This document shows, piece after piece, positions 3,965 to 5,545 of a stretch of 64,000 nucleotides of DNA; positions within the stretch are counted from its first letter, which is position 1, and every line of letters begins with the position of its first letter. This DNA comes from Escherichia coli (GTDB lineage: Bacteria; Pseudomonadota; Gammaproteobacteria; Enterobacterales; Enterobacteriaceae): the NCBI RefSeq assembly GCF_002854065.1, contig NZ_CP024147.1. The stretch is one strand, 5' to 3'. A program made the position numbers and the translations under genes. Under the pieces are notes generated by a model. The model saw nothing but the letters and a program-made list of their open reading frames with translations, did not search any database and was not told the DNA's origin.

Positions 3965-4085
3965 ATGCATGAAATAACCCTACTTCAGGGATTATCCCTG
4001 GCGGCGTTAGTTTTCGTTCTGGGGATTGATTTTTGGCTGGAAGCCTTATTTTTATTCCGCCCGATAATCGTTTGTACCCTAACTG
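3965..4085 (+). pseudogene. agaC: agaC N-terminal fragment (PTS EIIC), truncated by IS1 insertion
   Basis: ATG at 3965 reads MHEITLLQGLSLAALVFVLGIDFWLEALFLFRPIIVCTLTG, then runs into the IS1 left end with TGA at 4088-4090. Confidence 0.85.
4077..4085. repeat. 9-bp target-site duplication, left copy (CCCTAACTG)
   Basis: ccctaactg directly abuts the IS1 left end and is repeated exactly at 4854-4862 abutting the right end. Confidence 0.9.
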
Positions 4086-4140
4086 GGTGATGCTGCCAAC
4101 TTACTGATTTAGTGTATGATGGTGTTTTTGAGGTGCTCCA

Positions 4141-4416
4141 GTGGCTTCTGTTTCTATCAGCTGTCCCTCCTGTTCAGCTACTGACGGGGTGGTGCGTAAC
4201 GGCAAAAGCACCGCCGGACATCAGCGCTATCTCTGCTCTCACTGCCGTAAAACATGGCAACTGCAGTTCACTTACACCGCTTCTCAACCCGGTACGCACC
4301 AGAAAATCATTGATATGGCCATGAATGGCGTTGGATGCCGGGCAACTGCCCGCATTATGGGCGTTGGCCTCAACACGATTTTACGTCACTTAAAAAACTC
4401 AGGCCGCAGTCGGTAA
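4141..4416 (+). CDS. insA: IS1 InsA (transposition repressor, N-terminal part of InsAB' transposase)
   Basis: ORF 91 aa [43 protein letters not shown]... identical in type to IS1 InsA. Confidence 0.93.
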
Positions 4417-4838
4417 CCTCGCGCATACAGCCGGGCAGTGACGTCATCGTCTGCGCGGAAATGGACGAACAGTGGGGCTATGTCGGGGCTAAATCGCGCC
4501 AGCGCTGGCTGTTTTACGCGTATGACAGTCTCCGGAAGACGGTTGTTGCGCACGTATTCGGTGAACGCACTATGGCGACGCTGGGGCGTCTTATGAGCCT
4601 GCTGTCACCCTTTGACGTGGTGATATGGATGACGGATGGCTGGCCGCTGTATGAATCCCGCCTGAAGGGAAAGCTGCACGTAATCAGCAAGCGATATACG
4701 CAGCGAATTGAGCGGCATAACCTGAATCTGAGGCAGCACCTGGCACGGCTGGGACGGAAGTCGCTGTCGTTCTCAAAATCGGTGGAGCTGCATGACAAAG
4801 TCATCGGGCATTATCTGAACATAAAACACTATCAATAA
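4335..4838 (+). CDS. insB: IS1 InsB (expressed as InsAB' transposase via -1 frameshift at the A6C motif)
   Basis: ORF 167 aa; A6C slippery motif ttaaaaaac at 4390-4398 lies in the insA/insB overlap. Confidence 0.9.
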
Positions 4839-4853
4839 GTTGGAGTCATTACC

Positions 4854-4862
4854 CCCTAACTG
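4854..4862. repeat. 9-bp target-site duplication, right copy (CCCTAACTG)
   Basis: Exact copy of 4077-4085 immediately after the IS1 right end. Confidence 0.9.
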
Positions 4863-5545
4863 GCGCTATTCTCGGTGATATTCAGACTGGCTTAATTACC
4901 GGTGGTCTGACAGAGTTGGCTTTCGCCGGATTAACCCCTGCAGGTGGTGTTCAGCCGCCCAACCCGATTATGGCGGGTCTGATGACCACCGTCATTGCAT
5001 GGTCTACGGGCGTTGATGCCAAAACAGCAATTGGTCTTGGCCTGCCGTTTAGTTTGTTAATGCAGTACGTCATTCTGTTCTTCTATTCCGCTTTCTCATT
5101 ATTTATGACCAAAGCCGATAAATGCGCGAAAGAGGCGGATACGGCAGCGTTTTCCCGACTTAACTGGACAACGATGCTCATCGTCGCTTCAGCGTATGCG
5201 GTGATTGCTTTCCTCTGTACTTACCTGGCACAAGGGGCGATGCAGGCGCTGGTGAAAGCGATGCCCGCCTGGTTGACCCACGGCTTTGAAGTGGCTGGCG
5301 GTATTCTGCCTGCCGTTGGTTTTGGCTTGCTGCTGCGCGTGATGTTCAAAGCACAATATATCCCTTACCTGATCGCCGGCTTTCTGTTTGTTTGCTACAT
5401 CCAGGTCAGCAACCTGTTGCCGGTTGCCGTACTGGGCGCAGGCTTTGCGGTGTATGAGTTTTTCAATGCGAAATCCCGGCAGCAAGCGCAACCGCAGCCC
5501 GTTGCCAGTAAAAATGAAGAAGAGGACTACAGCAATGGGATCTGA
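4854..5545 (+). pseudogene. agaC: agaC C-terminal fragment (PTS EIIC), separated from its start by IS1
   Basis: Frame continues from the duplicated target (..T L T G A I L G D I Q T G...) to the stop at 5545; the two fragments minus one TSD copy total 804 nt = 267 codons, the length of intact AgaC. Confidence 0.85.

Follow-up and report, generated by a model that had tools for sequence, protein, structure and literature searches.

An IS1A-type insertion with a 9-bp target duplication interrupts agaC, the galactosamine EIIC gene, in an Escherichia coli genome

In the Escherichia coli genome analysed here, the agaC gene is interrupted after codon 41 by a complete IS1 element of the IS1A type, which lies between two perfect copies of a 9-bp target sequence. 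The window, that is the whole stretch of DNA that was analysed, is 64,000 nucleotides long and comes from contig NZ_CP024147.1. We hold with high confidence the account developed below as a whole, namely that an IS1A-type element inserted into agaC in the recent past, that the resulting allele is a null allele and that it lies in a stretch which IS1 hits repeatedly. For this genome the agaC call matters both as an annotation and as a phenotype: use of D-galactosamine is predicted to be lost, and that of GalNAc not necessarily so. The event itself is of an already known kind, a routine IS1 disruption of a dispensable sugar transporter in which both IS1 and agaC are known.

The IS1 copy and the interrupted agaC gene

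The element has the features that define the IS1 family, i.e. its length, its terminal repeats, two open reading frames with an A6C motif, a match to the transposase model and a 9-bp target duplication (Table 1). It is bounded by imperfect inverted repeats, each about 23 bp long and starting with GGT, which agree at 18 of 23 positions. An open insB' frame extends from 4335 to 4838, and by frame arithmetic a −1 shift at AAAAAAC, a frameshift that is itself predicted, gives the 232-aa InsAB' fusion. When reconstructed in this way, InsAB' passed the NCBIfam model NF033558 ('IS1 family transposase') with 243.2 bits for a cutoff of 100 and also matched NF050000, its N-terminal zinc-binding domain; moreover, the coordinates of the joined transposase annotated by PGAP in an identical IS1 copy (L001) are the same as those we reconstructed. 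The first-pass annotation had described a 768-bp IS1 with terminal repeats, insA, insB and the A6C site at this place, and every one of its coordinates holds.

Table 1. Coordinates in the window of the IS1 copy, the agaC fragments and the neighbouring operon genes
Feature	Position	Strand	Basis or remark
agaS	1256-2410		passes NCBIfam model
kbaY	2423-3283		passes NCBIfam model
agaB (Gam EIIB), intact, directly upstream of agaC	3450-3926	+	NF007288, 282 bits (cutoff 180)
agaC 5' fragment, nt 1-121	3965-4085	+	identical to nt 1-121 of CUWW06 agaC
Left target-site duplication copy, CCCTAACTG, agaC nt 113-121	4077-4085		sequence
Complete IS1 (IS1A type), 768 bp	4086-4853	+	transposase genes co-directional with agaC; script-checked sequence
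IS1 left inverted repeat (IRL), GGTGATGCTGCCAACTTACTGAT	4086-4108	+	sequence
insA, 91 aa, GTG start	4141-4416	+	ORF list and script
InsAB' transposase coding span, 232 aa (predicted fusion)	4141-4838	+	insA and insB' via −1 frameshift
A6C motif AAAAAAC (programmed −1 frameshift)	4392-4398	+	sequence
IS1 right inverted repeat (IRR); element ends with the reverse complement of GGTAATGACTCCAACTTATTGAT	4831-4853	+	sequence
Right target-site duplication copy, CCCTAACTG	4854-4862		sequence
agaC 3' fragment, nt 122-804	4863-5545	+	in frame with the 5' fragment after removal of IS1 and one repeat
agaD (Gam EIID), intact	5535-6326	+	NF007359, 456 bits (cutoff 400)
agaI, intact, last gene of the operon	6327-7094	+	NF007291, 472 bits (cutoff 271)

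Compared with the known IS1 of E. coli (IS1A isoform), with which it shares the 768-bp length, the GGT-starting repeats, insA and insB', the A6C motif, the 232-aa InsAB' and the 9-bp target duplication, the copy in agaC presents no structural difference and is distinguished by its insertion site alone. It is 100% identical to the IS1 copies that lie in agaC of an ST361 clone and in agaB of strain SW071610, whose transposase is labelled 'IS1-like element IS1A family transposase' by PGAP. Since identical copies sit at other, independent sites, the IS1A isoform is active in nature. The copy studied here looks functional, its mobility being predicted from its identity to these independently placed copies and from the empty site of the sister strains (see below). 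Neither a second IS1 copy nor any other long repeat was found in the 64-kb window, and no Rfam family was found across positions 3000-8000.

We then considered the gene on either side of the element. Joining the two agaC fragments gave 804 nt, corresponding to 267 codons and a stop, with no internal stop codon. The restored gene matches the intact agaC annotated in strain CUWW06 (WP_000544489.1) with 100% nucleotide identity and differs by 1 nt from agaC of strain 100416. In the window the 267-codon frame is not intact: it is interrupted after codon 41, and the truncated ORF (3965-4090) encodes 41 native residues followed by a TGA that is supplied by IS1 bases 4088-4090. Codon 41 straddles the junction and reads GGG in place of GGC, which is Gly either way. 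The gene agaC is a pseudogene in this genome. These data bear out what had been claimed in the first-pass annotation about the 9-mer on both sides of IS1, the 804-nt frame recovered by excising the element with one duplicate and the truncation of AgaC after 41 residues. The alignment to an intact agaC that it had proposed gave the identity to CUWW06 just mentioned, and the flanks, whose failure to join in the agaC frame would have spoken against its account, do join.

These data are best explained by the transposition of an IS1A-type element to the position between nt 121 and 122 of agaC, with a staggered 9-bp cut, as is typical of IS1, that was repaired into the CCCTAACTG duplication. It was a simple insertion, with neither an adjacent deletion nor an inversion, and it ends AgaC after 41 of its 267 residues, giving a predicted null allele.

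Role of AgaC and predicted effects of the insertion

The first-pass annotation had named agaC as the gene for the GalNAc EIIC of the PTS, and on this point it has to be corrected. Restored AgaC passed the equivalog model NF007289 ('PTS galactosamine transporter subunit IIC') with 407.2 bits for a cutoff of 300, whereas it failed the AgaW/GalNAc IIC model NF040757 (233.4 bits, cutoff 300). In addition, agaC is stated to encode the Gam-specific EIIC and agaBCD to serve Gam uptake (PMC3668189). Because the first model was passed, the second was failed and published work assigns agaBCD to Gam, we assign AgaC as the membrane EIIC of the galactosamine PTS and not as the GalNAc EIIC (AgaW). In CUWW06 and 100416, agaW is a separate gene that lies upstream in the cluster. 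The 'GalNAc EIIC' label follows an older database name of agaC. As AgaC serves Gam, GalNAc, which the first-pass annotation had proposed, is the wrong sugar for a growth test.

The operon order is agaS-kbaY-agaB-agaC-agaD-agaI; all five neighbours of agaC pass their models (Table 1) and the order is the same in CUWW06 and 100416. The insertion is not the first lesion of the cluster, as agaA was already a pseudogene (W238*, TGG to TAG at 483-485), a mutation that is common to both relatives. The genes agaF, agaVWE, kbaZ and agaR lie outside the window.

Two natural aga alleles are useful for comparison. In O157:H7 (EDL933 and Sakai), an amber mutation at codon 8 of agaC explains why these strains are Gam-minus and yet use GalNAc, i.e. 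a documented Gam-minus, Aga-plus phenotype (PMC3668189). This allele resembles the one described here in being a natural early null allele of agaC, but it is a point mutation that adds none of the extra 777 bp of untranslated RNA, whereas the allele here results from the insertion of a mobile element. In K-12, a 2.3-kb deletion in the aga locus is likewise a case of natural decay of the aga/gam regulon and the strain is both Aga-minus and Gam-minus (PMC3668189); in contrast to the lesion here, which hits the Gam-specific transporter, it hits the GalNAc half of the cluster.

Given the role of agaBCD in Gam uptake, we infer that the strain is Gam-minus, as D-galactosamine would no longer enter through AgaBCD. 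GalNAc uptake via AgaVWEF is predicted to be unaffected by the insertion, and GalNAc use should be unaffected as well, an expectation that relies on agaF, agaVWE, kbaZ and agaR being intact in the relatives. Owing to the agaA W238* mutation, such use would depend on NagA, which is able to stand in for AgaA (PMC3668189).

A second question is whether the insertion affects the genes located downstream. IS1 insertions are strongly polar in classical genetics. Here, three features make it plausible that agaD and agaI are subject to such an effect: translation of agaC stops at 4090, the agaC 3' fragment of about 700 nt is left untranslated, and the beginning of agaD shares 11 nt with the end of agaC, an overlap that suggests a translational coupling that is now lost. 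Transcripts from the agaS promoter that reach about 1.4 kb of largely untranslated RNA (IS1 and the agaC 3' fragment) would probably end prematurely, which would lower agaD and agaI expression. A scan of IS1 and the agaC 3' fragment found no intrinsic terminator above chance, and polarity would thus have to be Rho-dependent.

The reverse outcome is that the insertion is not polar and that an outward promoter of IS1 maintains or even raises agaD and agaI expression. The element is co-directional with the operon, so that read-through from the insA promoter is conceivable, and insertion sequences are able to create hybrid promoters. However, our promoter scan gave no outward promoter in or spanning the right-hand end of the element; the sole plus-strand hit of the scan across the region was a promoter-like site in the IRL/insA part of the element (4093-4120), and the untranslated agaC 3' RNA still lies ahead of agaD, with the suggested coupling lost. 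We therefore regard non-polarity as very improbable. The 4093-4120 site is located where the insA promoter of IS1 is expected.

Polarity has a precedent in this operon, since agaS-kbaY-agaBCDI behaves as one polar unit, in which lesions in the upstream part of the agaS operon exert polar effects on agaBCD (PMC3668189). It would add little to the phenotype, as AgaD has no use in the absence of AgaC and AgaI can be dispensed with, agaI being required for neither of the two sugars (PMC3668189).

Age, authenticity and prevalence of the insertion

Relatives were found by searching both flanks against 5,426 complete RefSeq E. coli genomes. The closest complete genome is that of CUWW06 (NZ_CP182139.1); in it, as in strain 100416 (NZ_CM128593.1), the site is empty, agaC is intact, CCCTAACTG is present once and the flanks are contiguous. 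Substitutions between the window and CUWW06 number 7 in about 48.8 kb (1.4e-4 per site) and those between the window and 100416 number 17 in about 48.2 kb (3.5e-4 per site), and IS1 is the only indel over these 48-49 kb. The contiguous flanks in both relatives and the identity of the restored agaC to an annotated intact gene show that the pattern did not arise by chance. Because both relatives have an empty site, the element came in by simple insertion after a very shallow split. The comparison of these sequences thus points to a real, simple and fairly recent IS1 insertion that followed the split from the closest sequenced relatives. That the insertion is recent had already been proposed in the first-pass annotation, and the empty sites of CUWW06 and 100416, together with the 100% identity of the element to copies found elsewhere, support it.

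The age must nevertheless be weighed against the view that the insertion is old, i.e. an ancestral pseudogene long fixed in a major lineage. Another agaC::IS1 allele (at nt 155) is indeed fixed in a whole clone (45 complete genomes, with ST361 among their strain names), and an exact look-up of the 41-aa product found it indexed in 76 blocks of public assemblies. Against this, the two closest complete genomes are both empty at such small distances, the duplication is perfect, the element shows no differences from other active-looking copies, and many of the 76 blocks correspond to independent insertions or to contigs that end there. An old insertion is thus very improbable, and we retain the recent one.

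The look-up of the 41-aa stub was the sole route by which the allele was found elsewhere. Among ten places inspected, one (plus a similar place that is not shown) belongs to the window's own lineage, four have IS1 at the same position through insertions of independent origin and five are contigs ending in native sequence at agaC nt 123-125. These last contigs (L015-L019) were rejected as further carriers, being an artefact of the look-up of a partial gene. The member of the window's own lineage is an independent draft assembly, GCA_035821435.1 (contig JAPQBK010000020.1), which has the same left junction as the window, matching it without a mismatch over 3,000 nt upstream and for 75 nt into IRL. 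Since at least one further public assembly shares this junction, the allele is characteristic of a small lineage and need not be confined to a single isolate; 'recent' is to be understood as a relative term. The agaC::IS1 allele also provides a handy marker that separates the strain from its closest relatives.

The exact IRL-first junction was found in none of the 5,426 complete E. coli genomes (0/5,426), nor was the IRR-first junction, and the exact junction was absent from the GTDB species representative genomes and from metagenome contigs. The allele is rare among finished genomes. A set of 100 genomes covering at least 80% of the query was ruled out as carriers, as the alignment places their insertions at different sites (34 bp downstream in ST361, 11 bp upstream in ET490 and, for the others, in agaB, agaD, agaI or the spacer).

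This rarity could also be read as the sign of an assembly artefact, in which contigs ending in a repeat were mis-joined so as to place IS1 in an agaC that is really intact; IS1 is multi-copy in E. coli, with a median of 10 matching places per genome. A mis-join would not, however, create a perfect 9-bp direct target duplication, the independent draft assembly has the same left junction and continues for 75 nt into IRL, and IS1 is found at the same agaC position in four other run assemblies. An artefact is therefore very unlikely, to the point that, on the evidence of these assemblies, we give it almost no weight.

Repeated IS1 insertion in agaC and decay of the locus

Looking at the other genomes, it appeared that IS1 has entered the same part of agaC several times. 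In strain ET490 an element is inserted after agaC nt 110, 11 bp upstream of the window site (after nt 121), with a duplication of AATCGTTTG. In the ST361 clone (45 complete genomes) the insertion lies after nt 155, 34 bp downstream, with a duplication of TGGCTTAAT. All have the same orientation, so that three same-orientation IS1 sites are found within 45 bp of agaC. The ST361 allele (e.g. NZ_CP083701.1) is like the one described here in its IS1 sequence, orientation, target gene, 9-bp duplication and near-N-terminal truncation, and differs from it by its position, its chromosomal background and its fixation in at least 45 complete genomes.

Short-read assemblies in which the agaS-agaB haplotype is a different one revealed further insertions at precisely nt 121/122 (L011-L014). 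In three of them the element is in the opposite orientation (IRR-first), and each has a different IRR variant: GGTAATGACTCCAACTTATTG followed by further sequence in L011, a ...CTTACTG... variant in L012, which also has a synonymous target variant (CCCTTACAG), and GGTAGTGACTCC followed by further sequence in L013. The fourth (L014) is in the same orientation as in the window, on a haplotype that is 3 nt away from the ST361 haplotype. From the opposite orientations and the different IS1 isoforms, it follows that at least four independent insertions have occurred at the same phosphodiester bond. This recurrence argues for a local IS1 hot spot in this part of agaC, to which selection for loss would at most contribute.

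What makes this site attractive could lie in its sequence. IS1 prefers AT-rich regions, and homology to the ends of IS1 or binding of IHF is a feature of some of its hot spots. The G+C content is 44% in the 50 nt that precede the site, for 52% in agaC, and the sequence GGTGAT-N15-ATTACC, in which the terminal hexamers of IS1 are present in inverted arrangement, is located 12 bp downstream of the site (4874-4900); it is one of two such pairs in 63 kb, which is a post hoc observation. An IHF site behind the hot spot was ruled out, since no match to WATCAANNNNTTR with 1 mismatch or fewer was found near the site. We tentatively propose, as a possibility somewhat short of an even chance, that agaC nt ~100-160 form a sequence-directed IS1 hot spot in which the nt 121/122 bond is preferred in both orientations, maybe guided by the GGTGAT/ATTACC pair. 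If this is true, galactosamine uptake is turned off by IS1 repeatedly and in a predictable manner in lineages of E. coli, the ST361 clone being one of them.

Alternatively, selection for loss of the galactosamine PTS, and not the target preference of IS1, could be the main reason why the insertion is present; the possible gains would be resistance to an agent that exploits the mannose-family IIC/IID membrane complex or the saving of a useless transporter. Inactivation of this transporter by other means is in line with such selection: agaC carries an amber mutation in O157:H7 (PMC3668189), internal stops are found in agaB (ET490) and agaC (JP538), other genomes have IS1 in the kbaY-agaB spacer, agaB, agaD or agaI as well as IS1-flanked deletions, and in the sister strain CUWW06 a separate IS1 lies a short way upstream of agaB. 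Yet selection would scatter the insertions along the gene, and the at least four events share an identical bond in both orientations. Moreover, no benefit of AgaC loss has been demonstrated, and our literature search found no paper on one; on agaC with IS1, on this assembly and on IS1 hot spots it gave nothing relevant beyond PMC3668189. Selection as the main cause is unlikely, but it and the hot spot are not mutually exclusive.

The hot spot in agaC is part of a wider picture. In at least 95-100 complete genomes, an IS1 on the same strand lies no more than about 1.35 kb away from the agaC flanks of the query, and a sampling of these genomes gave the following events. Strains ES3 and CUWW06 have IS1 in the kbaY-agaB spacer, SW071610 has it in agaB and B19374 in agaI. 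Strain 63-2 has the same right junction as the agaB::IS1 of SW071610, followed by a deletion that reaches garP. In JP538 and MB50 the element bounds deletions that extend from yhaV into the kbaY-agaB spacer and into agaB, respectively, and in PRO_A-1412 an IS1 in agaD is accompanied by a deletion reaching yraJ. Pseudogenes due to point mutations also occur, in agaB of ET490 and in agaC of JP538.

RefSeq already contains annotated agaC::IS1 pseudogenes of a similar kind, and the allele described here is one more case of IS1-driven decay of the aga/gam regulon that opens no new biological question. The repeated use by IS1 of the same few bases of agaC is mildly interesting in itself and might be used as a natural test of how IS1 chooses its targets.

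Recurrent insertion of IS1 at one bond of agaC

The IS1 insertion after nucleotide 121 of agaC is not confined to the window. Four other public run assemblies (L011, L012, L013 and L014) carry an IS1 after the same nucleotide, at the identical position. In three of them the element lies in the opposite orientation, with a right inverted repeat (IRR) variant that differs in each; in the remaining one the orientation is the same, but the haplotype differs. A single phosphodiester bond of agaC has thus been used by at least four independent IS1 events. Two more independent events in agaC are the insertion of ET490, 11 bp upstream of the window's, and that of ST361, 34 bp downstream of it; the latter is fixed in 45 complete genomes with ST361 among the strain names.

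We also found an IS1 in the kbaY-agaB spacer of CUWW06, the closest relative of the window strain, the other close relative being strain 100416. This copy is of another isoform than the window's (IS1B type, 8 mismatches). The window strain and its sister therefore record two independent IS1 events at most 720 bp apart in one operon.

Looking at the sequence around the insertion site, we noticed post hoc that GGTGAT-N15-ATTACC (positions 4874-4900), 12 bp from it, resembles both IS1 terminal hexamers in inverted arrangement. Only two such pairs, this one included, occur in 63 kb, and it could be a candidate IS1-targeting cue.

Features of the aga region and window-specific substitutions
Feature	Locus position	Window position or equivalent	Description
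agaA		1-905	GalNAc-6-P deacetylase gene (nagA in PGAP labelling); pseudogene
CUWW06 spacer IS1	L008:3455-4222	3358-3366	duplication GACTAAACC
ET490 agaC IS1	L009:4667-4675	4066-4074	co-oriented with the window's IS1
IS1 junction, L011-L014	3121/3122	4085/4086	
ST361 agaC IS1	L001:6212-6220	4888-4896	co-oriented with the window's IS1
agaI		6327-7094	768 nt, 255 aa
Small ORF		7125-7577	PGAP: RelE/ParE-family toxin
HTH antitoxin-like gene		7601-7903	
Substitution		9434	G for A, lpoA
Substitution		25868	A for G, pnp

Decay of the aga locus

Many IS1 events were found at the aga locus of other complete genomes (63-2, B19374, JP538, PRO_A-1412, ES3 and MB50), among which IS1-bounded deletions extend to garP, yhaV or yraJ. 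Point mutations have made pseudogenes of agaB (in ET490) and also of agaC. The Gam half of the regulon has decayed repeatedly. In the window agaA is interrupted as well, codon 238 (positions 483-485) being TAG where ET490 has TGG. Since both close relatives have the same stop, it predates the IS1 insertion.

The agaI-rsmI interval and window-specific changes

The yraHIJK fimbrial operon is missing between agaI and rsmI (positions 7125-7903), where the small ORF and the HTH antitoxin-like gene listed in the table replace it; the ORF, labelled a toxin by PGAP, has no NCBIfam match. The segment 4863-12000, which includes this arrangement, was used for a genome coverage count and is covered over at least 80% in 1,863 complete E. 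coli genomes, about one third. Both close relatives have agaI at the same length as the window, as compared with 756 nt where yraH is retained, a difference that may place the breakpoint of the replacement at the 3' end of agaI. Over about 44 kb, only the two substitutions listed in the table are window-specific, as both close relatives differ from the window there.
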